Below, piece by piece: positions 176-29,957 of a DNA stretch of 30,012 bases. This stretch comes from a virus, in the UHGV virus genome UHGV-0120925, one strand, 5' to 3'. Every line of letters starts with the position of its first letter. Position 1 is the first letter of the stretch. The notes beneath the pieces were generated by a model. It did not search any database, was not told where the DNA came from, and saw only the letters and a program-made list of their open reading frames with translations. A program made the position numbers and the translations under genes.

Positions 176-724
176 TCAGCTAGCTGGAAACTTTTTATAC
201 AGAGTTGAGAGCCCTACTCCATACGTTTTTGATACGCTTTGTCGTGATTCACCGGTTGCCATCCGCTCCCCCATTTCCCGCCATTGCTCATCCGTGAACT
301 TAGGCCTGCGACCACCAACTCGCCATTTTGCCCTGGCTACGGCCAGCCCTGCTAAGGTACGTTCGCTATTAAGATCAGATTCATATTGTGCTGCGGAAAG
401 GATGTTACGAAAGTTATAGCGGCCGCTGGCTGTTTTGAGATCCACGCCATCGGTAATACTGCGGAAGTTGATACCCTTTTCCTGTAACTGCTGGAACATC
501 AACAGCGCATGCAGAACGTTGCGGCCTATCCTGTCCAGCTTCCAGACCACCAGTTCATCCCCCGGCTGCATAGTGGTGATCAGCCGCTTCAGTACCGGAC
601 GATTAGATTTTCTCCCGCTTGCATGCTCTTCAAAAATGTGATCACATCCTGATAACTCAAGGGCAGAGCGCTGAAGTTCAGTATCCTGATGGTTTGTAGA
701 TACTCGGGCATAGCCGTAAATCAT
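176..724 (-). CDS. Serine recombinase, DNA invertase of the Hin/Gin/Cin/Pin family
   Basis: Translation from ATG 724 reads MIYGYARVSTNHQD...LVVWKLDRIGR...ERTLAGLAVARA...GVGLSTLYKKFPAS, matching the N-terminal catalytic serine region and C-terminal HTH of Hin/Pin. RBS AGGAGA upstream. The longer track ORF from 769 is an upstream extension. Confidence 0.92.
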   Translation of the reverse strand: MIYGYARVSTNHQDTELQRSALELSGCDHIFEEHASGRKSNRPVLKRLITTMQPGDELVVWKLDRIGRNVLHALLMFQQLQEKGINFRSITDGVDLKTASGRYNFRNILSAAQYESDLNSERTLAGLAVARAKWRVGGRRPKFTDEQWREMGERMATGESRQSVSKTYGVGLSTLYKKFPAS

Positions 725-779
725 GGGATTTCTCCTGTTATGAAAACAGGAGAAACGGCGAAGCATCACCAGATTTTTG

Positions 780-7503: not shown

Positions 7504-7528
7504 TAAAAAAAGCCACCGTTAGGTGGCT
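7504..7528 (-). terminator. Strong intrinsic terminator between I and J
   Basis: On the minus strand AGCCACC-UAAC-GGUGGCU is followed by six U residues, ending 10 nt before the J start codon. Confidence 0.55.
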
Positions 7529-7546
7529 TACAGTGGGTGGTTTGGT

Positions 7547-9939: not shown

Positions 9940-12900
9940 TTAAACCCCCTTGATTAAACGCCACAGAGGCGATCCAGGCATGCTGGCCTGTTCATTAATG
10001 ACGCCAGTGATGGCATCCTTAAGCTGCCAGCCTGCTGCTCCGGCAGTACCCTGACTGGACGCCTGTGGAGATCCGCCCTGAATATTGATATCGCCGAAGT
10101 TAACTGAAGGCACGCCGCCAGAGACCTGCGGAGTACCAACTGCCCTAACGCCAAGCGAACCGTCAGCTGCCCGCGTGAGTGGCATAATGGCTTCCGGTCC
10201 TGCCTCGGCAAAAACCCCTGCGCCTTTGGCAAAAGCAAACAGCTGAGGCGTCTGGAAAACGCCATTGCTGAAAGCGCTCAGGGACGGAGAGTCGTAAACA
10301 TTACCCTTCGCATTAAAGGTGAAGTTCGCCCCAGCATTCTGAATAGCGGTACCGCTGCTGGCGGTAGCGGATGACGAAGCCCCAAAACTGAACAGTGAAC
10401 CAATTGAGCTAACGCCATTAGCAACAGCCATATTCACCAGCACGTTCTGGATAATCTTCAGTACGCTGACGCCCCAGTCCTTCCAGCTGTCAACGTTGCC
10501 ATTGAGCATGTCGGTGATCGTGGTGACCGCGCCCCCCATAGCCTGCTTCATGCCGTCAGCGGCCATGGAAGAATAGTCAGTAGCTTCGTCCACCCAGTTC
10601 GCATAACCCTCAGACAGTCCCGTCATCCAGTCGTCACGCTGCGCATCAGAAGCTGCGTAATATCCCTCCTGGTCGCGCAGACGCTCCTCGAGATAGCGCT
10701 TATTAAGTGCCAGTCCCTGCTGATAGAACGTCTCGTCGATTTCACCAGCCTGACGCTGGCGGAGAAGATCGGTATTCTTTTGCTCGAACTCCTTACGCAG
10801 ATTGAACTGCTCCTGAAGTCTTTCACGGAACCTGGAGCCCTGCCCGTAGCCCAGCAGTTGCGCTTCATTGGCTGCGCGGGCGCTGGCGTTACTGTCAGCA
10901 AGGTTGGCTTCGTAATTTCGCAGTTGCTCACGTAATTTAACCTGGTCAATCAGCGCAGCATTCTGCAATACCGTCTTTTTCTGGGCTTCTGTCAGAGAAG
11001 CAAGTTCGCCCTGACTAACCTGGTATTTAACCTTCGCCAGTTCAGTATTCTGGCCTTGCAGGGCAATCTGCTCTTTTTGCTGTTTGATCAGCTTGTCATA
11101 GGCATCAGCTGTTTTTTCCGCCTCGGATTTCCCGCCCTTATGGCGGCTTGAGTCACGAATAGCTTGCAACTGCCTGGCTGACTCAACTTCCATGCTGACA
11201 TACTTCTCACGCCAACCAGCAGGGAGATTAAGGTCAGATGCATCGAATTCCGCCTGCTTGCGGGTTTTGTCCAATCCCTTAAGACCGGACAACTCAAGCT
11301 GTCGCTGCGCCTTGTCTATAGCTTGCTGCTGCTTATTATCAAGTGCAGGAAGTACAGGCCCTGCATATTTTGGTGGGGACACTGCTGTAGACTGTCTGGA
11401 AACCTTGTTCAGACGGTCATACATCTCTGTAAGATAACTTACGGCGCCAGCCATTTCTACTGTTTTATTTATAGCCTGATCAGTTATGTCGTTTATTAAC
11501 TGTTGTGTTTGCTTTCTTTTATTGAGCATTTGCTCAAGTCGGCCTTCTTCAACCGCAAGTTCTGAAGCAAACTCTGCTGATTTCTCAACCGCATCGTTAT
11601 ACAGCCATGTTCCATCTGAAGCAGAATTGGCTGCTAATTTTGCGTTATAAAGTTGATTGGATAATTCAGCAACTTTCTGCTTCTGCTGTTCAATCGCACT
11701 ATTTTGAGCATCCAGTGAAATATTCGCCTGTCCAAGGTTGGCGGATATCTGCGTCTGAGACATTGATTTCAGATTATCTCGTACCTGCTCGATTGTGTCC
11801 GCATATTGGATTGCAGATTCCCTGGCTTGTTCTTGGCGTTGATACATCGTGTACCACGCCCCAGCACCCAACATTAAAATTCCTGGCAAACCACCAACTA
11901 ACGACAAAAGCCCCGTAGCGCCAGACTTGAATAAATTCATTACCGATGTTGATCGGTTGAGTGCTTCTTGCGACGCTGATACTGCTTTATTTGACTGAAC
12001 GAGAGTGGCATTGGCGGCTATCATTTCACGCCGTTTGGCAATAGAATTTTGTGTAGCTGTCGCTTCTGCATTTGTGTTTTTTGCAAGTTCCAACTCGGAT
12101 AGCGAGAGCTGATAAGCACGCTCGGCAGCAATCGCATCTGCTGCCGCCTTTCGTTGTGATTGGGTAGCAGATTCAGCCCTTGCAGATGCGAGCGCAATTT
12201 CGTTCTTTCTGGCATCTATTAATTGCGCCGTTTGGTTCCCAAGATCGCCAAACATCCCTCCAAGATAGCGAGCTCCACCTATTGCAGCCAAAGCTCCGGC
12301 AGCCGTAGCCACAGTGTCGATATTGTCAGAAACTGTATTCAATACAGCAACAAGAGCACTTGTCGCACCAGTAGCTTCATTAGCTCCACCTACCCATGCC
12401 ATGAAAGCATTTTCGACTTTCGTCGTGGCAGCAGAAACGGTCTGCGGCATTGCCTCAAATTCACCACGCATAGTGCCAAGTTGACTTATCAGGGCCGGGA
12501 CAACTTTATCTGCGGTTAGCATCCCCTGATCGGCCATTGCCTTCAGATCTTTACGAGCTACACCCATCCCAGCGGCCAGCGCACGGATAACTCGATCACC
12601 GTTTTCGTTAACAGAGTTGAATTCCTCGCCCCGCAGAACGCCCTGAGCTAATGCCTGACTAAACTGGGTGATAACAGAACTTGCCTCTGCCGTGCTGGCG
12701 CCGGATAGCTTTAGTCCAGTAGAAATGGCCTCGGTTACATCCAGAACTTGCTGCGAACTGTATCCGTATTCACGCATTGATGCGGCGGAACGCGCAAAAA
12801 GACTCGCATTATCAGAGAAGGCGGTTCCGGTTCGTTGGCTAATATCCATCAGCGCCCGCTGAGACTCCGTGAAATCATCAGACGATTGGGAAGCCTGCTT

Positions 12901-13206
12901 TAGCCTGGCATTAACAGAGCTCCATTCATCGGCCAGCGATATAAGATGACCAGTCGCAAATACTCCAGCAAATGCACCTGCCATTCCCAGCGCTGAGGCC
13001 TTCGCGGTGTTTATTTGACTAGTTACCTCAGCTAAGGCACGCTGAGTTTCACGCGAAGCTGCGGCCGCTTGGCGTCCTCCAGTCTGCATTACCCGGTAAT
13101 AGTCATTCCCCATTCTTGAAGCACGAGAAATTTCAGACTGAAATGACTGAGAGTTTGCAGATATTTTGATGATCAGTTCGCGCAACGTAGCCATATTTTC
13201 ACCCAT
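9940..13206 (-). CDS. H: Tail tape measure protein
   Basis: 1088 aa, coiled-coil and Ala/Gln-rich, at the position of lambda H between T and M. Start could be ATG 13206 or 13194. Confidence 0.9.
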   Translation of the reverse strand: MGENMATLRELIIKISANSQSFQSEISRASRMGNDYYRVMQTGGRQAAAASRETQRALAEVTSQINTAKASALGMAGAFAGVFATGHLISLADEWSSVNARLKQASQSSDDFTESQRALMDISQRTGTAFSDNASLFARSAASMREYGYSSQQVLDVTEAISTGLKLSGASTAEASSVITQFSQALAQGVLRGEEFNSVNENGDRVIRALAAGMGVARKDLKAMADQGMLTADKVVPALISQLGTMRGEFEAMPQTVSAATTKVENAFMAWVGGANEATGATSALVAVLNTVSDNIDTVATAAGALAAIGGARYLGGMFGDLGNQTAQLIDARKNEIALASARAESATQSQRKAAADAIAAERAYQLSLSELELAKNTNAEATATQNSIAKRREMIAANATLVQSNKAVSASQEALNRSTSVMNLFKSGATGLLSLVGGLPGILMLGAGAWYTMYQRQEQARESAIQYADTIEQVRDNLKSMSQTQISANLGQANISLDAQNSAIEQQKQKVAELSNQLYNAKLAANSASDGTWLYNDAVEKSAEFASELAVEEGRLEQMLNKRKQTQQLINDITDQAINKTVEMAGAVSYLTEMYDRLNKVSRQSTAVSPPKYAGPVLPALDNKQQQAIDKAQRQLELSGLKGLDKTRKQAEFDASDLNLPAGWREKYVSMEVESARQLQAIRDSSRHKGGKSEAEKTADAYDKLIKQQKEQIALQGQNTELAKVKYQVSQGELASLTEAQKKTVLQNAALIDQVKLREQLRNYEANLADSNASARAANEAQLLGYGQGSRFRERLQEQFNLRKEFEQKNTDLLRQRQAGEIDETFYQQGLALNKRYLEERLRDQEGYYAASDAQRDDWMTGLSEGYANWVDEATDYSSMAADGMKQAMGGAVTTITDMLNGNVDSWKDWGVSVLKIIQNVLVNMAVANGVSSIGSLFSFGASSSATASSGTAIQNAGANFTFNAKGNVYDSPSLSAFSNGVFQTPQLFAFAKGAGVFAEAGPEAIMPLTRAADGSLGVRAVGTPQVSGGVPSVNFGDINIQGGSPQASSQGTAGAAGWQLKDAITGVINEQASMPGSPLWRLIKGV

Positions 13207-13236
13207 AAAAAAACCCGCTTGATAGCGGGTCGTGAG
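13207..13236 (-). terminator. Intrinsic terminator immediately upstream of the tape-measure start
   Basis: On the minus strand ACCCGC-UAUCAA-GCGGGU is followed by seven U residues and then the ATG of the tape-measure gene. Confidence 0.55.
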
Positions 13237-13425
13237 TTATAAACTGTCTTTTCTTTTGTGAGCGACTTGTATTAATAAATCTATTTGCGCATCTTGTTTT
13301 TTATTTATCTCTTTAAGGGCTTCAACTTGTTCATTTGCCCTTGTGCTAAACCGTATTAAATAAAAAATCACAATTAGATTTATCAACCAGCCGAATATTC
13401 CAAACACTACTACCAGTGGTTCCAT
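13237..13425 (-). CDS. Small single-pass membrane protein (moron between T and tape measure)
   Basis: Strong RBS AAGGAGG 4 nt before ATG 13425. 62 aa with one hydrophobic helix (PLVVVFGIFGWLINLIVIFYLI) and a charged tail. Lambda has no gene at this position. Confidence 0.6.
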   Translation of the reverse strand: MEPLVVVFGIFGWLINLIVIFYLIRFSTRANEQVEALKEINKKQDAQIDLLIQVAHKRKDSL

Positions 13426-13482
13426 AACGCCTCCTTTTCTTAAGGAAAGAGCGTATCGCCACATTGATGACATGTGAAGCAA

Positions 13483-13761
13483 TTATTGTGTCGCAGCTGT
13501 AAGAGCAGCCTCAAGCCCTGCAAACGGGTCCTTCGGTTCTGATTGCTCATCGCCACCCCATCGCAGGATCGCATCGTCCAGCGGTACTTTTGCCCCCTGC
13601 GAACCGTAGATGGCAGAGACGAGCTGGGCTGCCTGAATGTCGCCACGGATATCGCCAACCGGACTTTGCCTGTCGAACTCAATCCACATCAGAAGCTCGC
13701 TTGCCGTCATATTCTGCCGAAGCTCTGAGAGCGTGCGCCCCATCCGGAGCGCAAGCGACAT
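13483..13761 (-). CDS. T: Tail assembly protein T region, expected to be made as a G-T fusion by -1 frameshift
   Basis: Sequence ...LRMGRTLSEL...ELLMWIEFD...GDIRGDIQAAQLVSAIY... matches the phage tail T family. The frame is open upstream to 13821, overlapping the end of G. Confidence 0.8.
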   Translation of the reverse strand: MSLALRMGRTLSELRQNMTASELLMWIEFDRQSPVGDIRGDIQAAQLVSAIYGSQGAKVPLDDAILRWGGDEQSEPKDPFAGLEAALTAATQ

Positions 13762-13769
13762 CAGAAACT

Positions 13770-14153
13770 TTACCCCGGGGGTTGAGACTTTTCCCGCGCT
13801 TCGTCCGCATTGTTGATCAGGTCAAGCGCCTGTTTGAGCAGACGTGAGTGCACGGGCCCGTAAATTTCACGCACCTGCTCTTCTTCGTCTACGCTGAATA
13901 CCGGTTGCTTATCGGTGTCACACAGAACGTCAATGAAGAGCACCACGTCAGCGCAAAGATTACGGTGCGCCTTTTCCGATACCGACACATTTTCATCGTC
14001 GGCCCCCCCTTTCACCACTTCCTGCCAGCGCAGCCAGGCTTCACCTGACGGCTCACGGAGAACCACTTTGACGCCTTCCCACTCAGGAACGGCGACCGTC
14101 TTATGACGAAATCCCGACATCTTAGCCAGGGCGAGATTTTTAATATTCTTCAT
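13770..14153 (-). CDS. G: Tail assembly chaperone G
   Basis: Position directly after the tail tube gene, RBS GAGAGG, acidic protein, followed by the overlapping -1 frame T ORF. Confidence 0.8.
   Translation of the reverse strand: MKNIKNLALAKMSGFRHKTVAVPEWEGVKVVLREPSGEAWLRWQEVVKGGADDENVSVSEKAHRNLCADVVLFIDVLCDTDKQPVFSVDEEEQVREIYGPVHSRLLKQALDLINNADEAREKSQPPG
13788..13795 (-). other. Candidate programmed -1 ribosomal frameshift site GGGAAAAG
   Basis: On the minus strand the G frame reads CGG GAA AAG, six codons before the G stop. A -1 slip of the Lys tRNA from AAG to AAA enters the T frame (predicted junction ...AREK/VSTPGVKFLMSLALR...). Resembles the lambda GGGAAAG site but with one extra A. 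Confidence 0.45.
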
Positions 14154-14161
14154 GAGACCTC

Positions 14162-14605
14162 TCAGGAGCCAGACTCGATGTTTTCAGGCTTACCTTTCAG
14201 GCGCAGGGAGAACGTTGCCGCCACTACGCCGTTGGTACCGGAAGACCAGGTGTGCTGGCGGATTTCAGCCAGGAACTTAAAGCCCTTGCCGGACGGGAAG
14301 ATAACCTGGAACGCGTAGGTCGTATCGTTGTCATACGCTTCACGCAAGGCGTCCTGCGCCTGATTCTTGTAGAAGTTGCCGGACAGAGAGATTTCTGACG
14401 GAGAAGACAGGCCGTTGATGTTCTCCTGCTCGGTAGAGCAAAGTGTTGTTACGTCGATATCCTGCTTCTGACCACCGGTGAACTGAATTTCTTTGATGGT
14501 GCAACTCAGATCGAGGAAGGTTGCTGAATCCATCGTTTCTTTGGTGGCTGGCAGGGAGGAAATAAGGATCTTCGTCAGCTGCGATTTTTCATAAAGTGCA
14601 GACAT
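14162..14605 (-). CDS. Major tail (tube) protein
   Basis: 147 aa at the position of lambda V between the tail terminator and G. RBS AGGAGA. Hairpin directly upstream. Confidence 0.7.
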   Translation of the reverse strand: MSALYEKSQLTKILISSLPATKETMDSATFLDLSCTIKEIQFTGGQKQDIDVTTLCSTEQENINGLSSPSEISLSGNFYKNQAQDALREAYDNDTTYAFQVIFPSGKGFKFLAEIRQHTWSSGTNGVVAATFSLRLKGKPENIESGS

Positions 14606-14611
14606 ATCTGT

Positions 14612-14645
14612 CTCCTGGAAAAAGAAAACCCGCCATTAGCGGGCT
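14612..14645 (-). terminator. Terminator-like hairpin between the tail terminator gene and the tail tube gene
   Basis: On the minus strand AGCCCGC-UAAUG-GCGGGUU (one G-U pair) is followed by UUCUUUUU and then the tail tube RBS. Confidence 0.45.
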
Positions 14646-14663
14646 CGTTGGGTGAATTAATTG

Positions 14664-21909: not shown

Positions 21910-22443
21910 AATCGAAAACTCCTATTAATCATCGGCTGTGGGACCCCAAAAAAAGTTTTCTAACCTGCGGCGATGTGAAGAAAGGCTAGGCGGCGGTCCT
22001 TTTGGCGCCCGGTTACAGGGATTTGACCTCCCCCTCCCCTCCACATCCGTTGATGGTAATCATTATCATTTGAAGCGTTCACGCCCTGTTTTCGAGCGGT
22101 GGCAAGGCCAGCACAGGCTTTCAAGGTTCGAATCATCATCGGTACACGTAAACGTGCTGTATCACCGGGTGCGATCCGGTCGGTGAGAGAGTATCCCCGC
22201 GCGAGAGCGAGAACGGCGTGAGAACGGGCAACACTGGCAGGGAGTTGGCGCTGACCAATACAGGGAATGTTATGGGATGTGGTGAAGGGTTCATGGACGG
22301 GAATATGTCGCACGTAAAGCGGCGAGGCCCGAGGAGCTATTGCCGAAGATAAGTAGGCCGAATCGGGTCGAAATGGGTCTCCCACCTACCACAGCACCAA
22401 AGCATTTCTCCCGCATCAGCGGGTAACTAAGTGGAGAGTAAGT
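21910..22443. promoter_or_regulatory. Non-coding divergent control region between the late (minus) and early-left (plus) operons; likely holds promoters and the packaging site
   Basis: About 530 bp with no RBS-supported ORF. GC-rich, with short direct repeats (GAGAACGG twice at 22207..22226). Exact promoter and cos/pac positions cannot be fixed from sequence alone. Confidence 0.4.
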
Positions 22444-22632
22444 ATGCACAAGTGTCAATTCTGTGGGTACTTTCTGGCATCTGAAGAGATGCAGAGAATA
22501 TCTGTAAACATGGTTGGCAGGCCTTACAACATCTGCATTCCATGCTCAGAAAAGTACAAAAAGAAAGGCCTGTGGGATTCGGCAAAAAACGATATCGACT
22601 GGAAAGCACTTCCATGCGTCGATGAGACATAA
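22444..22632 (+). CDS. Small zinc-ribbon protein (CxxC...CxxC), unknown function
   Basis: RBS GGAGAG. 62 aa with Cys pairs at residues 4/7 and 31/34. First gene of the plus-strand early operon. Confidence 0.6.
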   Translation: MHKCQFCGYFLASEEMQRISVNMVGRPYNICIPCSEKYKKKGLWDSAKNDIDWKALPCVDET

Positions 22633-22665
22633 CCGCATCAGCGGGTAACGACAGAGGGTAAGGGG

Positions 22666-22962
22666 ATGATCGACGACATCAAGCGCATCGACTCAATGAT
22701 AAATGCGCTTCGCAATATGAAACAGGACATCAAGCGTCAGCAGAAACTAAGTGAAATAAACAGTTTAGACCTGTCGCCGAAGCAAGCTCAAAAGCGCAAT
22801 GCCGATGCTGACTGGATTGCGATGGAACAGATTAAGCGTCGGCATGAGCTGCACGCTCTGTCTGTTGAGCTTGGGTTCGCTGAGCGCCGGGAAAGTTATG
22901 CTCCATTTGAATTAACTGACGGGTGGCACCGATTCGACCACAAGCCGCGCGAACCTCAATAG
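22666..22962 (+). CDS. Hypothetical protein (98 aa)
   Basis: RBS AAGGGG. Preceded at fixed spacing by the repeated 17-nt motif. Terminator follows. Confidence 0.55.
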   Translation: MIDDIKRIDSMINALRNMKQDIKRQQKLSEINSLDLSPKQAQKRNADADWIAMEQIKRRHELHALSVELGFAERRESYAPFELTDGWHRFDHKPREPQ

Positions 22963-22984
22963 CCGCCTAACCAGCGGCTTTTTC
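22961..22984 (+). terminator. Rho-independent terminator within the early operon
   Basis: AGCCGC-CTAACCA-GCGGCT followed by TTTTT, overlapping the stop codon of the 98-aa ORF. Confidence 0.55.
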
Positions 22985-23118
22985 ATACCTGGAGTCATTT
23001 ACGAGTGGCTCAAGTTATGACAACCGGCGGCCATCCACCGCCCATTGAAACACTGAATAAATGCGTTGAAGTCTTGTATTAACCGTTCCGTTCGCCGCGA
23101 TAAGGCCAAGAGGAAATC

Positions 23119-23325
23119 ATGGTAAACCAGCACTACGGTACACAGACAGTAAACCGCGGCGCAGTTCAGCCGGGGATGCTCGTCAAACACAAGGATTCAA
23201 CCTGGACGGCATCAGCTAATGCTCGTGGTCGTTTGTATCTGCATCGCGGCGTTGAGATGACTTACACCAGGGATTTGCTGGTTGAAGTTTATCTGAACGG
23301 TCTGGGGAATGGCCTCAGCCATTAA
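23119..23325 (+). CDS. Hypothetical protein (68 aa)
   Basis: RBS AGAGGA before the ATG. No recognisable family. Confidence 0.45.
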   Translation: MVNQHYGTQTVNRGAVQPGMLVKHKDSTWTASANARGRLYLHRGVEMTYTRDLLVEVYLNGLGNGLSH

Positions 23326-23358
23326 CGGAGAGTTGCCAAAACACTTTAAGGACAGGTG

Positions 23359-23517
23359 ATGAAAAAAGAATGTGGTTATTGCCACAAGCCTGTTGAAGAA
23401 GGCGCAGAAGTAAAGAGCACCTTGCTCTATCTCAACGGTTCGCAACTGGCACAGAAAGAAAAAGAATATTGCTCTAAGCAATGCGCTGAATACGACCAGA
23501 TGGCGCACGAAAGTTAA
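23359..23517 (+). CDS. Small zinc-ribbon protein (52 aa), found by hand because it is below the ORF-track cutoff
   Basis: RBS AAGGACAGG before ATG 23359. MKKECGYCHKP...YCSKQCAEY has CxxC and CxxxC pairs. Confidence 0.45.
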   Translation: MKKECGYCHKPVEEGAEVKSTLLYLNGSQLAQKEKEYCSKQCAEYDQMAHES

Positions 23518-23602
23518 ATAGCAGTCCTGAAATATGAAATGAAAAATTCGCCATTAATTTGGCGCGGCTTCTTACACCCTTAATTTAACAACTGGAGATT
23601 TT

Positions 23603-23890
23603 ATGGAAATCGTAAAAATCGAAATGAACCTGAAAGCAGTGAATAAAGAAGTGGCTGCATTCAACTGCGAGAAGAAAGTATCAGGCGTTATTCACTCAAC
23701 TACAAACGGTGAAACAACAGTCATTCTCGACGGTGGCTATGTGCTTGGCAAGTTTGATTGCCCGCACTGCGCCATTGAGGAGATCAGCTTGCTGGTACTC
23801 AAAATCAGCGATAGCGATTACGCCGGCTGGGGAACCTACCGTACATACAAGCAAGATTTTATGAATGAGGCGATCGTAGCCGTCAGTTAA
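23603..23890 (+). CDS. Hypothetical protein (95 aa) with CxxC pair
   Basis: RBS GGAG before the ATG. Followed by hairpin GCCCAC-CGAA-GTGGGC (23897..23912) without a U tract. Confidence 0.5.
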   Translation: MEIVKIEMNLKAVNKEVAAFNCEKKVSGVIHSTTNGETTVILDGGYVLGKFDCPHCAIEEISLLVLKISDSDYAGWGTYRTYKQDFMNEAIVAVS

Positions 23891-24030
23891 GCGAAAGCCC
23901 ACCGAAGTGGGCCCGCCATGTCCGGCCTCACCGACCAAAGTTACACCGGAAACAACATTAAAACCAAAGTTAACCCAATGGGCGCTATCAATGGTCCGGG
24001 GATTCTAACACCCAAAAATGAGGATCTCAC

Positions 24031-26937
24031 ATGGAATTCTTTAATGTGGTTAAAGCCACTCAGAAATCCGGAAAGCAAGATGCAGTGGTCTGGTTCACTG
24101 CTAAAACCGAGGCTCGCGCCAATCTGATGCTGGATGTTGCGCTGGAAGATGCAGGTATCGAAACAGGTCGGGGTAAGGACTACGCCAAACCGATTCGCAC
24201 TGATTTCCCAGTTGTCGACGGCCTGCCGAAAGAAGGTGAAGTTGATTTTACCTGGTGTGATCGCTACGAGCTTCATGACGATGGGCGCACCTGGCTGCCA
24301 AAAGTCACAGCTGAAAACTCTGACGAGAAAACGGCTCAGACCGTTGATAGTCACATAACTACTGAGTCAACGCTGTCAGAAACCGCTGGCATCACGCTGG
24401 ACGAACACGACGACGACTCAACCCTCTACCCGGTAGTGCAGATGCCGTTTCGTAAGCAACTGCTTTCCCAGTTCACCGCCGACGAACTGCGCCACCACGT
24501 AACCCATGAAGAGTACGAAGCTATCGGCGCGCTGGAGATGGACACTGATAACAGTTACGTCCAGAACTTGCTGTTAGCTGCTGAGAACTGCCCGGAAGTG
24601 AAGGGTTACGACACCAAAGACCTGTGGCGTTACACCGATGCCATTCGCAAAGTGTTCAGCCAGGACAAGCGTCACGAACTCGCGCTGGTACTCCGTTTCA
24701 CCAGAATGTGGGCGGCGACTGATTACATTGACCGTGGCATCCTGGCGCGTGAATGGGCCGCCGGTAATCGCATCAGTAGTGTGCAGCGTACTGATTCCGG
24801 CACTAATGCCGACGGCGGTTACGTCACTGACCGTGGACCTGAGGCACACCACACACTGGACACTCTCGATTTAGAGATTGCGTGTGCCCTTCTGCCTATG
24901 GACTTCAACCACTTCGAGATCCCGGGCAGCATTCTTCGTCGCGCTAAAGAAATCGTGACCAAAAAAGAAGAACCATGGAAATCATGGAGCAACATCCTGC
25001 GCAATCAGCCAGGCGTTCTGGGTGTTAACCGCACGGCTATTTTTAACCTGGTACGTATCGCACCGGAAAATATTCATTTAACTCCTGTCGCTCACCTGGA
25101 ATTTGTTAACCAGACCATGACAGCCGCGTTCAATTCCGCGGTCGAGTTATTGCCGTTGCATGAAGCTGAACCCGCAGCACAGGAAATTCCCCAACCTGAA
25201 GGTAAGGAGTCTCCGCGCAAATCCTTCTGCACTCACGAAGAGAACCTGCAACGCGTGCGTGAAGAAGGAGCACGCCGCCGCGCAGAGGAAGCGGCAGCAC
25301 AACCGCAGAAAGTCGAACAAGAACTGGTTAAAAATGTCGGCAACGGAATATTCGACGTTACGGCTTTGCTGCAGAACTCAGCAACTCATGGCACGAAAAA
25401 GGCTACGGAGACCACCAGCAATGTGCAGGTTCAAGAAACTGTCAGTGATGAAAAACAAGCTGGTGATGAAGTACAGCCAGGCGAAAGCAGTCTGGAGTCT
25501 GGTGAAGAGTCAGATACCAGCCAGAAGGACGATGTAGACCAGAATACGGATTCTGTCGCCAAAAATAGCGATTCTGTAAGCCAAACCGAACCAGTTGCAA
25601 CACAAACCGAGCCAGAAGCGCAATCTGACGAACCAGCTGTTGTTTATCCCGCTTATTTCGAGCCAGGCCGCTATGAAGGGCTGCCAAACGAGGTTTACCA
25701 CGCCGCCAACGGCATCAGCTCAACCCAGGTGAAAGATGCGCGCGTTTCGCTGATGTACTTCAATGCGCGCCACGTAGAGAAAACCATCGTCAAAGAGCGC
25801 TCAGCGGTGCTGGACATGGGCAACTTGGTGCATGCGCTGGCGTTGCAGCCTGAACTACTGGACGCAGAATTCAGCGTTGAACCGGTGATCCCTGAAGGCG
25901 CATTCACAACGGCCGCGACCCTGCGCGCCTTTATCGATGAGCACAATGCCAGCCTGCCGGCGCTGCTGTCTGCCGACGACATCAAGGTGTTACTGGAAGA
26001 GTACAACGCCACCCTGCCGCCGCAGGTTCCGCTTGGCGCTAACCTGGAAGAAACGGCACAGAACTATATGGCGCTGCCAGCTGACTTCCAGCGTATTGAT
26101 GGTGACCAGAAGCAGACGGCGACGGCAATGAAGGCATGCATTAAAGAGTACAACGCCACCCTGCCGCCGCCGGTTAAAACCAGCGGCAGCCGTGACGCGC
26201 TGCTGGAGCAGTTGGCAATCATCAACCCTGACCTTGTGGCTCAGGAAGCACAGAAACCGGCACCACTGAAAGTGTCCGGTACCAAAGCAGACATGATCCA
26301 GGCCGTGAAGGCAGTCAAACCAGATGCCGTATTTGCCGACGAACTGCTGGATGCCTGGCGCGATAACCCGGAAGGAAAAGTGCTGGTCACCCGCCAGCAG
26401 CTGAGCACCGCGCTGAATATTCAAAAAGCGCTTCTGGCACACCCGACCGCCGGCATGCTGCTGACCCACCCTAGCCGAGCCGTTGAGGTGAGCTACTTTG
26501 GTTTTGACGAGGAGACGGGCTTGGAAGTTCGTGTGCGCCCTGACCTTGAGATCGACCTGGATGGCGTGCGTATAGGTGCAGACCTGAAAACCATCAGCAT
26601 GTGGAATGTTAAGCAGGAAAGCCTGCGCGCCAGGCTACACCGGGAAATTATTGAACGTGATTATCACCTGAGCGCGGCTATGTACTGCGAAACCGCAGCG
26701 CTGGATCAGTTCTTCTGGATTTTCGTCAACAAAGACGAGAACTACCACTGGATCGCCATCATCGAGGCATCCGCTGAACTACTGGAGCTGGGTATGCTCG
26801 AGTACCGCAAAGCGATGCGCAATATCGCAACCGGATTCGACACAGGTGAATGGCCAGCGCCAATCACTGCTGACTACACCGACGAACTGAACGACTTCGA
26901 CCTGCGCCGCCTTGAAGCGCTGCGTACTCAGGCATAA
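24031..26937 (+). CDS. recE: RecE-like exonuclease VIII (C-terminal PD-(D/E)XK nuclease domain) with long N-terminal extension
   Basis: 968 aa immediately upstream of recT. C-terminal region ...YFEPGRYEGLPNEVYHAANGISSTQ...DLEIDLDGVRIGADLKT... is consistent with a RecE/YqaJ-type nuclease. Central acidic low-complexity stretch. Confidence 0.8.
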   Translation: MEFFNVVKATQKSGKQDAVVWFTAKTEARANLMLDVALEDAGIETGRGKDYAKPIRTDFPVVDGLPKEGEVDFTWCDRYELHDDGRTWLPKVTAENSDEKTAQTVDSHITTESTLSETAGITLDEHDDDSTLYPVVQMPFRKQLLSQFTADELRHHVTHEEYEAIGALEMDTDNSYVQNLLLAAENCPEVKGYDTKDLWRYTDAIRKVFSQDKRHELALVLRFTRMWAATDYIDRGILAREWAAGNRISSVQRTDSGTNADGGYVTDRGPEAHHTLDTLDLEIACALLPMDFNHFEIPGSILRRAKEIVTKKEEPWKSWSNILRNQPGVLGVNRTAIFNLVRIAPENIHLTPVAHLEFVNQTMTAAFNSAVELLPLHEAEPAAQEIPQPEGKESPRKSFCTHEENLQRVREEGARRRAEEAAAQPQKVEQELVKNVGNGIFDVTALLQNSATHGTKKATETTSNVQVQETVSDEKQAGDEVQPGESSLESGEESDTSQKDDVDQNTDSVAKNSDSVSQTEPVATQTEPEAQSDEPAVVYPAYFEPGRYEGLPNEVYHAANGISSTQVKDARVSLMYFNARHVEKTIVKERSAVLDMGNLVHALALQPELLDAEFSVEPVIPEGAFTTAATLRAFIDEHNASLPALLSADDIKVLLEEYNATLPPQVPLGANLEETAQNYMALPADFQRIDGDQKQTATAMKACIKEYNATLPPPVKTSGSRDALLEQLAIINPDLVAQEAQKPAPLKVSGTKADMIQAVKAVKPDAVFADELLDAWRDNPEGKVLVTRQQLSTALNIQKALLAHPTAGMLLTHPSRAVEVSYFGFDEETGLEVRVRPDLEIDLDGVRIGADLKTISMWNVKQESLRARLHREIIERDYHLSAAMYCETAALDQFFWIFVNKDENYHWIAIIEASAELLELGMLEYRKAMRNIATGFDTGEWPAPITADYTDELNDFDLRRLEALRTQA

Positions 26938-26942
26938 GGGGA

Positions 26943-28061
26943 ATGATGATGGAAAACACGAATATCGTAACCGCTGAACAGCAGACTCCAAACACGATCT
27001 CAGCCAGCAATGCCATTTTCAACGTGCAGGCTTTAACCCAGCTTCAGTCTGTCGCCGGGTTGATGGCACAGGCAGCCGTAACGGTGCCTGAGCACCTCCG
27101 CGGCAATCCGGCAGACTGCATGGCCATCATCATGCAGGCGATGCAGTGGGGTATGAACCCTTACGCCGTGGCGCAAAAGACGCACCTGGTTAACGGTGTC
27201 CTGGGATACGAAGCGCAACTGGTTAATGCGGTGATCTCCAGCTCAAACGCCATCGTTGGCCGCTTTCACTATGAGTACGAGGGCGACTGGTCGAAATGTG
27301 CCAGCAGCCGCGAGATAACCGTTAAAAAGCCTGCGAAAGGTGGCGGGACGTACGACAAGAAAGAAATGGTACGCGGTTGGGAAAGTGCTGATGAACAAGG
27401 ACTGTCGGTACGGGTAGGTGCCGTTATTCGCGGTGAAAGTGATATCACCTGGGGAGAGCCTGTTTTACTCTCCAGCGTAATCACACGTAATTCTCCACTT
27501 TGGGTATCAAACCCGAAACAGCAGATCGCTTATCTGGCACTCAAATACTGGGCGCGCCTATATTGCCCTGCAGTTGTTCTTGGTGTGTACACCCCTGATG
27601 AGATTGAACAGCGCACAGAAAAAGAGATCAACCCAACGCCGCAACGCGTTAGCCTGGCTGATATCTCAGGTGACACCGTCACAACCACGCAAAGCGCACA
27701 GGAATCGTCGGTAAATGTCGACTCTCTTGCCGATGATTTCCGCGAACGCATCGAATCTGCTCAGGACGTGGATAGCACCAAATCGCTGCGTGCCGACATT
27801 GAAACGGCGAAAGCTACGCTGGGATCCGCACTATTCACCGAGCTGAAAAACAAAGCCGTAAAGCGTTATTACCTAGTGGATGCACGCAACAAGGTTGAGG
27901 AGGCTATTAAATCCCTGCCCCAGCCCGACGAGCCGCATGCAGCCGAACGGTTCGCTGAAGCCGAGCGCATGCTTACATCTTCAAAGCGTCACTTAGGCGA
28001 TGAACTGCACGATCAATTCAGCATCACCCTGGCGGATATGAAACCGGAATACGTGGCCTGA
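26943..28061 (+). CDS. recT: RecT single-strand annealing recombinase
   Basis: RBS AAGGGG. Region ...CMAIIMQAMQWGMNPYAVAQKTHLVNGVLGYEAQ... matches the RecT family. Paired with the upstream RecE-like gene. Confidence 0.9.
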   Translation: MMMENTNIVTAEQQTPNTISASNAIFNVQALTQLQSVAGLMAQAAVTVPEHLRGNPADCMAIIMQAMQWGMNPYAVAQKTHLVNGVLGYEAQLVNAVISSSNAIVGRFHYEYEGDWSKCASSREITVKKPAKGGGTYDKKEMVRGWESADEQGLSVRVGAVIRGESDITWGEPVLLSSVITRNSPLWVSNPKQQIAYLALKYWARLYCPAVVLGVYTPDEIEQRTEKEINPTPQRVSLADISGDTVTTTQSAQESSVNVDSLADDFRERIESAQDVDSTKSLRADIETAKATLGSALFTELKNKAVKRYYLVDARNKVEEAIKSLPQPDEPHAAERFAEAERMLTSSKRHLGDELHDQFSITLADMKPEYVA

Positions 28062-28099
28062 CGAGACCGGGAGGGGTAACCCTCCCTCAAGGAGATTAT

Positions 28100-28342
28100 A
28101 TGCGACTGATCAATCGAGGAAGTAAGCAATCACCTTTAGCTCGCCAAGCATGCGACATCGCGCTGGCAGCTCACTTGCAAACATATGGCGACTATGGGCG
28201 AAGCAAGATGAAAGAGACTTATACGGTGAAGGTTGAAGGCGTGAAAGTCTGGGTGGAGGTGGTGAACCGAAAGGCGAGCTACGTGGCCACAGCGATGACC
28301 GGCATGCGCCGTCTCCGCTCCCTGCCCGGGCAGGTTGGTTGA
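28100..28342 (+). CDS. Hypothetical protein (80 aa)
   Basis: RBS AAGGAG before ATG 28100. Preceded by the stable hairpin GGGAGGG-GTAA-CCCTCCC (28069..28086). Confidence 0.5.
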   Translation: MRLINRGSKQSPLARQACDIALAAHLQTYGDYGRSKMKETYTVKVEGVKVWVEVVNRKASYVATAMTGMRRLRSLPGQVG

Positions 28343-28383
28343 AAAAGATTTTGAATGGCCCGAACGGGCAACTGGAGAGAGCT

Positions 28384-28581
28384 ATGGATGATATTTTGGT
28401 AACGTCAGACCTGACCAGTCGCTACAAAATTTCACGCAAAACCCTTTGGTCATGGCAAAGTGCAGACACAATGCCTCGGGGCTTCGTATGCCCGTTCCCA
28501 CCCCCTGACTGGCCCGGCAACCCTAACCGCTGGCGCTCTGAGTCAATCAAAGAGTGGGAGGATAAAAAGAAGATAAATTAA
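28384..28581 (+). CDS. xis: Excisionase / AlpA-like DNA-binding protein
   Basis: Start at ATG 28384 with RBS GGAGAG; the track ORF from 28339 begins with TTG. Pattern ...[12 protein letters not shown]...PRGFVCPFP... fits the AlpA/Xis winged-helix family. Converges on the int 3' end. Confidence 0.6.
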
Positions 28582-29771
28582 CTGAAGGGCTCTCCGATGA
28601 TCTCTTCAAGATGGCTCTGCCAAACGCGGAGCCAGTGTTTCTGATCATCGATATAGTCATGAAGGTTGTAATGCGCCATAACCCCCACCATCTGATGCCC
28701 GAGCAGCTTTTCAATTACGTGCGGCGGGCAACCTAACTCAGAGAGATTTGTGGCTATCGTCCGCCTCATATCATGAAGCGACCACTCTGCCATACCTGTT
28801 CCATTCCAAATAGAACGGGCGTAATTGGATGCCACAGGTGAATGAACGGGCGAATCTTTGATCCCGCCATCAATTTTACGTTGTGAAGTCACCAGGTGAT
28901 TGGTGTTTATTTTCTTGAGGTGATTTCTGACCAGGTTAACGGCGGCGTCTGAGAGTCCCCTTCTAATATGTACCCGAGTTTTATAACTGCCCGCAGGCAC
29001 GACCCACTCATTATCATCCAATCGAAACCATGATCTCTCACTAAGTCGAATCTCAGCCGTACGGCATCCGGTAAGCATAATAAATTTCACCAGGAAAACG
29101 GACTCTATCGACATATGGCTTTTCAACCACTGATAGATTTTGCGCAGATCGTCATCGTCCATCCTGCGAGTTCTCTTTTTAGGCTTTTGCCCGACATCAG
29201 ATGGCAGTAATCCCTCGAGTGGGTTTGAGGCGATCACACTTCTGTTAACGCAGAACCTAAACGCCCGTTTGCACAGCGAAAGCATGTAATGAGCCATCAC
29301 CCTGCTTTCTATAGAATCGAAGACGTTGATCCAGTGCATTTTCGCTGTGTTATCGACTTTGACATTCTTCATCGGTTCGGCGATATGTTTCTCAAACACC
29401 TGGCGATAGTAATCGACTTTAACTAGCCCGTTAGCGATACAGTGCCTTTCAATCCAGTAATTGAACGCTTCGGCAACGGACATCGCTTCCTGTCGGGTCT
29501 GCTTATCCAGCTTCACCTGCTCTCGCGGATCCAGTCCCTCAGTTAACCAGTTTCTGAATTGTTGGCGACGCTCTCTTGCCTGGGTGATACTCATTGCAGG
29601 ATAATCACCAACATTGAGTTTTACCGCTTTACCGGCCCAGCGATACCGATAGAAAAATGATATTTTTCCGGCCTGGCTGATTCTGGCGTTGAGCCCGTGC
29701 GAATCAGAAATAATCTCGATATCATCTCTTTTCTTGCCGAGCGCCTTCCTGAGCTTTGTGTCGGTGATCAT
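28578..29771 (-). CDS. int: Tyrosine site-specific integrase
   Basis: C-terminal catalytic region with R...HDMRRT...H...Y residues ([30 protein letters not shown]). Start set at ATG 29771 ([10 protein letters not shown]), typical of P4-type integrase N-termini; upstream in-frame codons run through the GTACACA repeats and are probably untranslated. Confidence 0.88.
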
Positions 29772-29776
29772 TGAAT

Positions 29777-29817
29777 GGGTACACATTTTTGTTTTTGGGT
29801 ACACAAAAGTGTACACA
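29777..29817. repeat. Three direct repeats of G(G/T)GTACACA just upstream of the integrase start; candidate arm-type or operator sites
   Basis: GGGTACACA at 29777..29785 and 29797..29805, GTGTACACA at 29809..29817 (contains the palindrome GTGTACAC). A single GTACACA also sits in the left-end hairpin loop at 136..142. Confidence 0.4.
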
Positions 29818-29957
29818 AAGTTGCCCACTCAAAGCTACACGCAATGTAACACTAGTTCGCAGAGTGTTATGGTTTACATCCTTGAAAGCCTGCTGGATAA
29901 GGGTTTAGCGTAACAGAACGTTTTTACGCGGAATTGTTCGTAATATGCCAAATGACA

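Follow-up and report, generated by a model that had tools for sequence, protein, structure and literature searches.

What does the short open reading frame between the tail assembly gene T and the tape-measure gene of the viral genome UHGV-0120925 encode, and is it a new element? The initial annotation of the window (the whole 30,012-nt stretch of DNA that was analysed) took it to be a moron for a small single-pass membrane protein of unknown function, and listed toxins, exclusion factors and modulators as roles that such proteins often have.

The gene 15 moron of phage HK97 and its product Gp15 were reportedly the subject of work by Juhala et al. in 2000 and by Cumby et al. in 2012. The term "moron" was first coined for this element, whose place is between the gene for the tail assembly chaperone and that for the tape-measure protein (PMC3594210). 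According to the same paper, the prophage expresses Gp15, which goes into the inner membrane and keeps HK97 and HK75 from superinfecting the cell; the receptors stay functional, and the effect is independent of repressor immunity (PMC3594210). The block is described as being relieved when the tail tube and tape-measure protein (TMP) of HK022 are swapped into the incoming phage (PMC3594210; PMC10883804; PMC4737114), and the later papers class Gp15 among the blockers of DNA injection (PMC10883804; PMC4737114). Entry of HK97 requires LamB, FkpA and PtsG, and the TMP has been linked to PtsG.

We conclude, with a probability of roughly 0.9 for identity and function taken jointly, that the element in the window is an orthologue of the HK97 gene 15 moron. 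The element is real yet already known rather than new, since it is a near-identical copy of HK97 gene 15 and the function of the product, superinfection exclusion, has already been published for the orthologue.

The gene 15 copy and its relation to HK97

Reading 5' to 3' along the minus strand, the locus consists of G, T, a 57-nt spacer, gene 15, a 5-nt trailer, a hairpin with a run of seven U residues, and the TMP reading frame. The features are as follows, with the evidence for each in parentheses:

13770 to 14153, minus strand: gene G (Pfam Phage_TAC_1)
13483 to 13761, minus strand: T, tail assembly protein, the -1 frameshift extension of G (Pfam Phage_tail_T, E = 5e-20; -1 frame relative to G open on reading the sequence)
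13485 to 13483, minus strand: TAA stop codon of T, the left boundary of the insertion
13232 to 13482, minus strand: inserted moron DNA, 251 nt, comprising promoter region, ribosome binding site, gene 15 and the 5-nt trailer (alignment with cargo-free junctions; GC content)
13450 to 13478, minus strand: candidate sigma-70 promoter, with -35 TTCACA (13478 to 13473), a 17-nt spacer and -10 TACGCT (13455 to 13450) (relaxed positional scan)
13430 to 13436, minus strand: Shine-Dalgarno sequence AAGGAGG of gene 15, 4 nt upstream of the ATG (read from the sequence)
13237 to 13425, minus strand: gene 15 orthologue, 62 codons plus TAA (Pfam YebO; phrog_5031; match to HK97 Gp15)
13207 to 13231, minus strand: intrinsic-terminator-like hairpin plus U7, with stem 13231 to 13224 paired with 13219 to 13212, loop AUCA and U7 at 13213 to 13207 (fold; terminator scan; HK97 annotation)
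13199 to 13204, minus strand: Shine-Dalgarno sequence GGGTGA of the tape-measure gene (GGGTGA or AGGTGG conserved in gp15-bearing and cargo-free relatives)
9940 to 13194, minus strand: tape-measure gene, 1084 aa from the corrected start (Pfam TMP_3, Phage_HK97_TLTM and Tape_meas_lam_C)

The product of the reading frame is identical to HK97 Gp15 (AAF31105.1) at 59 of 62 residues (95%), and the three differences (M14L, L24I and Q57K) are conservative substitutions, all at sites where natural variation occurs within the family. It also matches WP_059291502.1, an accession annotated as "YebO family protein", at all 62 residues. A 411-nt segment is 97% identical at the DNA level to HK97, HK75, HK106, HK446, HK544, HK633, mEp234 and mEpX1, and reaches 99.5% identity with an E. 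coli EC2001 prophage; of 5426 complete E. coli genomes, only 6 contain the whole segment, which is also present in the HK97 group of phages. The HK97 record labels the gene "15: Gp15, moron product" and places a putative terminator after it. Likeness to HK97 extends to the position between T and TMP, the ribosome binding site, the terminator, the low GC content of the insert and the adjacent TMP, which is 90% identical to HK97 Gp16. The window copy differs from that of HK97 in its genomic surroundings, in a terminator tail of seven rather than eight U residues, and in two neighbouring proteins, a TMP whose C-terminal 65 or so residues differ and a tail tube protein that has no Ig domain. More widely, a homologue with 62 to 100% identity lies between T and TMP in all 41 of the viral-contig loci.

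The picture of a small single-pass membrane protein translated from a strong ribosome binding site was borne out. The 62-codon frame is intact, the AAGGAGG sequence lies at 13436 to 13430, and its GGAG core is present in every variant of the alignment. The product matches Pfam YebO (PF13974) with 38.9 bits against a gathering threshold of 27, and phrog_5031 with E = 8e-29 over residues 1 to 61. The topology prediction that the initial annotation had proposed gave a single N-terminal transmembrane helix, at about residues 4 to 24 (Kyte-Doolittle 19-mer mean of 2.5 over residues 4 to 22), with lysine or arginine residues after it; the arginines directly following the helix, R25 and R29, suggest an N-out/C-in orientation. 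AlphaFold2 predicts one continuous helix over residues 2 to 61 (pLDDT 94.6). The identity and the anatomy of the element come directly from this analysis, as do its insertion boundaries and the purifying selection acting on it.

Function of the gene product

E. coli YebO (b1825; PF13974) shares with the gene 15 product a single N-terminal transmembrane helix, a following R-x-S-x-R-(A/T)-N-E-Q sequence and a helical tail, and pairwise BLASTP gave 38% identity to K-12 YebO over 48 aa. YebO differs from the gene 15 product in being 95 aa long and chromosomal, in adjoining mgrB and in having a different tail. A k-mer-limited search of a collection of 5.8 billion proteins returned only 35 close clusters of gene 15 homologues, all PF13974; Citrobacter, Klebsiella and Raoultella are the sources of the named ones. 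Chromosomal YebO was beyond the reach of this search, and the link between gene 15 and YebO rests on Pfam and the pairwise BLASTP comparison.

One could imagine that the window protein modulates host physiology in the manner of YebO and has no exclusion activity here, or that its phage specificity has been lost or changed. Membership in the YebO Pfam family, the three substitutions relative to HK97 Gp15 and a TMP C-terminus unlike that of HK97 would all be compatible with such a role. The protein is, however, 95% identical to a tested exclusion protein, with its substitutions confined to naturally variable sites, and it is a member of the gp15 group. No variation is seen in EINKKQDAQIDLLIQ of the predicted cytoplasmic helix across gp15 variants, and the C-terminal motif specific to that group is invariant. 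In PMC3594210, Gp15 is described as resembling YebO N-terminally, and neither overexpression nor deletion of YebO had an effect on HK97, arguing that the gp15 and YebO groups are functionally distinct. We regard a YebO-like role in the window as improbable.

A small membrane toxin, either of type I or holin-like and acting in abortive infection or addiction, is more improbable still. A short, single-pass hydrophobic protein behind a strong ribosome binding site is what such a toxin would look like, but the 251-nt insert contains no antisense or antitoxin partner, and PADLOC gave no model above noise for Gp15 or for any of the alternative cassettes described below. Furthermore, prophages express the orthologue, which is described as beneficial to the host, with no toxicity reported in that paper (PMC3594210), and the published effect is exclusion at DNA entry rather than cell death (PMC3594210; PMC10883804). 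The last possibility, a chance non-coding frame in an AT-rich spacer, could appeal to the shortness of the frame and its low-GC surroundings and is already refuted by the comparative data: a disrupted frame in relatives, which the initial annotation had named as contrary evidence, was looked for and not found, since the frame is intact in 29 of 29 distinct DNA variants (16 protein variants), dN/dS is 0.03 to 0.07 against moderately diverged copies, the Shine-Dalgarno sequence is conserved, and the product has Pfam and PHROG matches. Even taken together, the three alternatives account for only a small part of the probability.

The reading that remains is exclusion of the Gp15 type. The description of the function as unknown is outdated, because a 95%-identical orthologue has been characterised, and the reading as a moron and possible exclusion factor is supported; the window copy probably behaves like HK97 Gp15. 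Such a protein would have counterparts in other prophages. The Cor lipoproteins of HK022, N15 and phi80 are likewise products of prophage morons that confer superinfection exclusion, but Cor inactivates the FhuA receptor (PMC3594210), whereas Gp15 has no lipobox and the receptors stay functional; phrog_5031 was the only PHROG matched by the gene 15 product, and the Cor family phrog_1119 was not matched. The prophage-encoded SieA of P22, Ltp of TP-J34 and Sie2009 of Tuc2009 are envelope proteins that stop DNA from entering once the phage has adsorbed, and in these systems the determinants of escape lie in the ejection or tape-measure proteins of the phage that comes in (PMC10883804). They have no sequence relationship to Gp15 and differ from it in size and anchor, Ltp being a surface lipoprotein and SieA a larger inner-membrane protein.

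An insertion between T and the tape-measure gene

The junction was surveyed in 61 genomic loci, taken at species level, in which a T homologue and a TMP could both be identified. The gap between the two genes is only 6 to 35 nt in 35 of these loci, and cargo is present in the other 26; the fact that so many related junctions are empty argues that the gene 15 element is a true insertion. Its GC content is 35.1%, compared to 58.1% for T and 50.7% for TMP, and the insert thereby combines two of the marks by which the Juhala/Hendrix definition recognises a moron, DNA absent from collinear relatives and a deviating base composition; the definition also names an own promoter and an own terminator, for which the candidates are taken up below. 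HK022 has a T-TMP gap of 19 nt, and lambda is not known to have a gene at the site. The statement in the initial annotation that lambdoid phages have no gene at this position is correct for HK022 but too broad for tail modules of the HK97 type, which are often occupied (80 of the 80 closest viral loci and 26 of the 61 genomic loci).

The start of the tape-measure gene

The TMP reading frame is open for 1088 codons from its first in-frame ATG (13206), which abuts the U-run, and the terminator had accordingly been described as ending exactly at the tape-measure ATG. The start is instead the second ATG, at 13194 to 13192. This is the start used by the HK97 depositors and by PGAP, and the sequence MATLRELIIK begins at the equivalent position in every relative. 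The first ATG is absent in diverged gp15 loci (ATTAGGTGG...) and out of frame in most empty junctions (GAAAT as opposed to GAAAAT), and a conserved GGGTGA or AGGTGG Shine-Dalgarno sequence lies between the two ATGs. With the start at 13194, the U-run ends 12 nt before the gene.

The TMP is nearly identical to HK97 Gp16 up to about residue 1020. The last 65 or so residues (9940 to 10135, minus strand) are unrelated to those of Gp16, and this divergence points to a recombination breakpoint inside the gene.

Which phages Gp15 excludes is probably determined by the TMP. Across loci, the identity of Gp15 follows that of the TMP N-terminus far more closely than that of T; in one locus (L018), for example, Gp15 is 97%, the TMP N-terminus 99% and T 69% identical. 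This kind of co-variation would be expected from tight linkage to TMP. The divergent C-terminus of the window TMP could shift the specificity of exclusion.

The hairpin and the T-TMP junction as a cassette site

The stem and the seven U residues recognised in the initial annotation were confirmed. The hairpin, GACCCGCU-AUCA-AGCGGGUU at 13231 to 13212, has a core of 6 to 7 Watson-Crick pairs, folds with -14.9 kcal/mol (z = -3.0 relative to shuffled sequences) and was also picked up by the terminator scan; in the HK97 record the same hairpin element is annotated as a putative terminator. Across 35 diverse junctions the pairing is held in 93.6% of cells, and 3 of 5 pairs show compensatory changes.

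Of 137 distinct loci, 113 have a hairpin with a U-run at a distance of 15 to 24 nt upstream from the TMP ATG, and about 18 of the hairpin-bearing loci, as counted by gap length, are free of cargo. In those cargo-free junctions that were inspected, the hairpin directly abuts the T stop codon, and the TTTTTTTATGGGTGAAAT-ATGGC block that the window also has comes after it. Examples of cargo-free junctions with a hairpin are L164 (Enterobacter sp. ECC-219), L167, L178, L179, L185 (Pseudomonas lundensis) and L188. With terminator-like hairpins at many cargo-free junctions, the hairpin was not clearly brought in by the moron. These loci suggest that the hairpin may be a resident element of the junction. 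Against this, three cassettes with one common Shine-Dalgarno block carry three different hairpins, arguing that hairpins can travel with the cargo. The hairpin-only loci could also be scars of cassette loss.

The cargo itself is diverse. The survey of cassettes covered L003 to L005, L047 to L126 and L128 to L191, at the junction equivalent to 13195 to 13482 of the window. The junction is filled in all 80 of the closest viral loci, those with a T of at least 97% identity, and at least seven kinds of cargo were found: gp15/YebO-like proteins, a zinc-ribbon protein of 111 aa with two transmembrane segments, three lipoproteins (121, 113 and 78 aa), a signal-peptide protein of about 98 aa, and a tail-anchored protein of about 140 aa encoded on the reverse strand. 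The 78-aa lipoprotein cassette encodes a homologue of the Cor superinfection-exclusion protein (phrog_1119, E = 2e-30) and sits exactly in the T-TMP slot of related prophages, and distant YebO-like proteins occupy the slot in Buttiauxella, Pantoea and Serratia. One Cor-type cassette (L049, IMGVR_UViG_2872117924_000003) contains an IS5-family transposase that truncates the lipoprotein reading frame.

These observations can be put together in a tentative model, to which we would give somewhat less than even odds, in which the T-TMP junction is a terminator-insulated landing pad for interchangeable envelope-protein cassettes and the hairpin is a resident that is older than the cargo. Such a landing pad would explain why exclusion genes accumulate here, because a resident hairpin would stop inserted promoters from activating the tail genes in the lysogen. 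A literature search, incomplete in its coverage, found no earlier account of the T-TMP junction as a hotspot.

A candidate promoter and a model for exclusion

The initial annotation had also suggested looking for an independent promoter between 13426 and 13482. The best candidate, the sigma-70-like site at 13478 to 13450, does lie within this interval, but it would be a weak promoter, since it matches only 8 of 12 consensus positions, and it falls below the threshold of the standard promoter scan, which found nothing in 12900 to 14300. In the relaxed scan of eight diverged gp15 variants, the candidate site at -53 to -56 from the gene 15 ATG was the top-scoring one in seven loci and the third in the eighth, and its position is constant though the sequences differ.

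The most likely mode of action of the element begins with a lysogen in which the tail operon would be silent. A weak constitutive promoter just past the T stop codon would give a short transcript with a strong ribosome binding site, and this transcript would end at the hairpin and U7, 12 nt before the TMP start, so that the downstream tail genes would stay off. The 62-aa product would lie in the inner membrane, probably N-out/C-in, with a conserved cytoplasmic helix of about 38 residues. There it would block genome entry by superinfecting phages with an HK97-type tail tube or TMP, presumably by keeping them from completing the TMP-dependent DNA-entry channel, and outer-membrane receptors would be unaffected. 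During lytic growth, antiterminated late transcription would be expected to pass through the hairpin, as general knowledge of lambdoid late operons suggests. The related prophage of EC2001 encodes an antitermination protein. Within this scheme, expression from the prophage and the dependence of exclusion on the tail tube or TMP of the incoming phage come from the published work on HK97 Gp15; the position of the promoter, the topology of the protein, the read-through of the hairpin and the likeness of this copy to HK97 Gp15 in behaviour are inferred. The element that carries the gene 15 copy in the window may be defective.

Other features of the window

Two further strong hairpins with U-runs lie between late genes. 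One lies at 7510 to 7529 (minus strand), just upstream of J, with the sequence AAGCCACC-UAAC-GGUGGCUU followed by U7. Another, at 14626 to 14646 (minus strand), precedes the tail tube gene, at a place where a terminator is annotated in HK97 as well. Hairpins between cistrons thus seem to recur regularly in the late operon.

The tail tube protein (14162 to 14605, minus strand) is 147 aa long and 92% identical to residues 1 to 145 of HK97 Gp12, without the C-terminal Ig-like domain. In EC2001 and ECONIH5 the equivalent gene is called a pseudogene by PGAP; phage LAU1 has an intact gene of the same short form, which argues that the protein is probably a natural domain-less variant rather than a pseudogene product. 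In the same operon, the heptamer C CCG GGG (13779 to 13773, minus strand) lies directly before the G stop codon; it fits the pattern X XXY YYZ and has the right phase for a -1 frameshift from G to T. The sequence GGGAAAA in G was rejected as a frameshift site because it is in the wrong phase.

Towards the other end of the window (22400 to 29830), the terminase end of the structural module lies about 1.6 kb from recE/recT (24031 to 28061, plus strand), with an integrase gene at 28578 to 29828 (minus strand). No lysis or regulatory genes were found between the terminase end and recE/recT/integrase in the window, and the terminase-recE/recT junction was absent from the 5426 complete E. coli genomes. 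In the relative in EC2001, the genes follow the normal lambdoid layout. The window may represent a chimeric or deleted prophage. A resolvase/invertase with Resolvase and HTH_7 domains is encoded at 176 to 769 (minus strand) and adjoins the tail-fibre genes, an arrangement that suggests a Pin/Gin-type invertible tail-fibre segment nearby.

Conclusions

The gene 15 copy in the window by itself adds little, being a further example of a textbook moron. The results do bear on annotation: the gene can be annotated as a "Gp15-like superinfection exclusion protein" instead of a "YebO family protein" or a hypothetical one, and the start of the tape-measure gene should be placed at 13194. Beyond this single copy, the variety of cassettes at the T-TMP junction and the hairpins at empty junctions could merit a short comparative study of the ways in which tail operons acquire exclusion genes.
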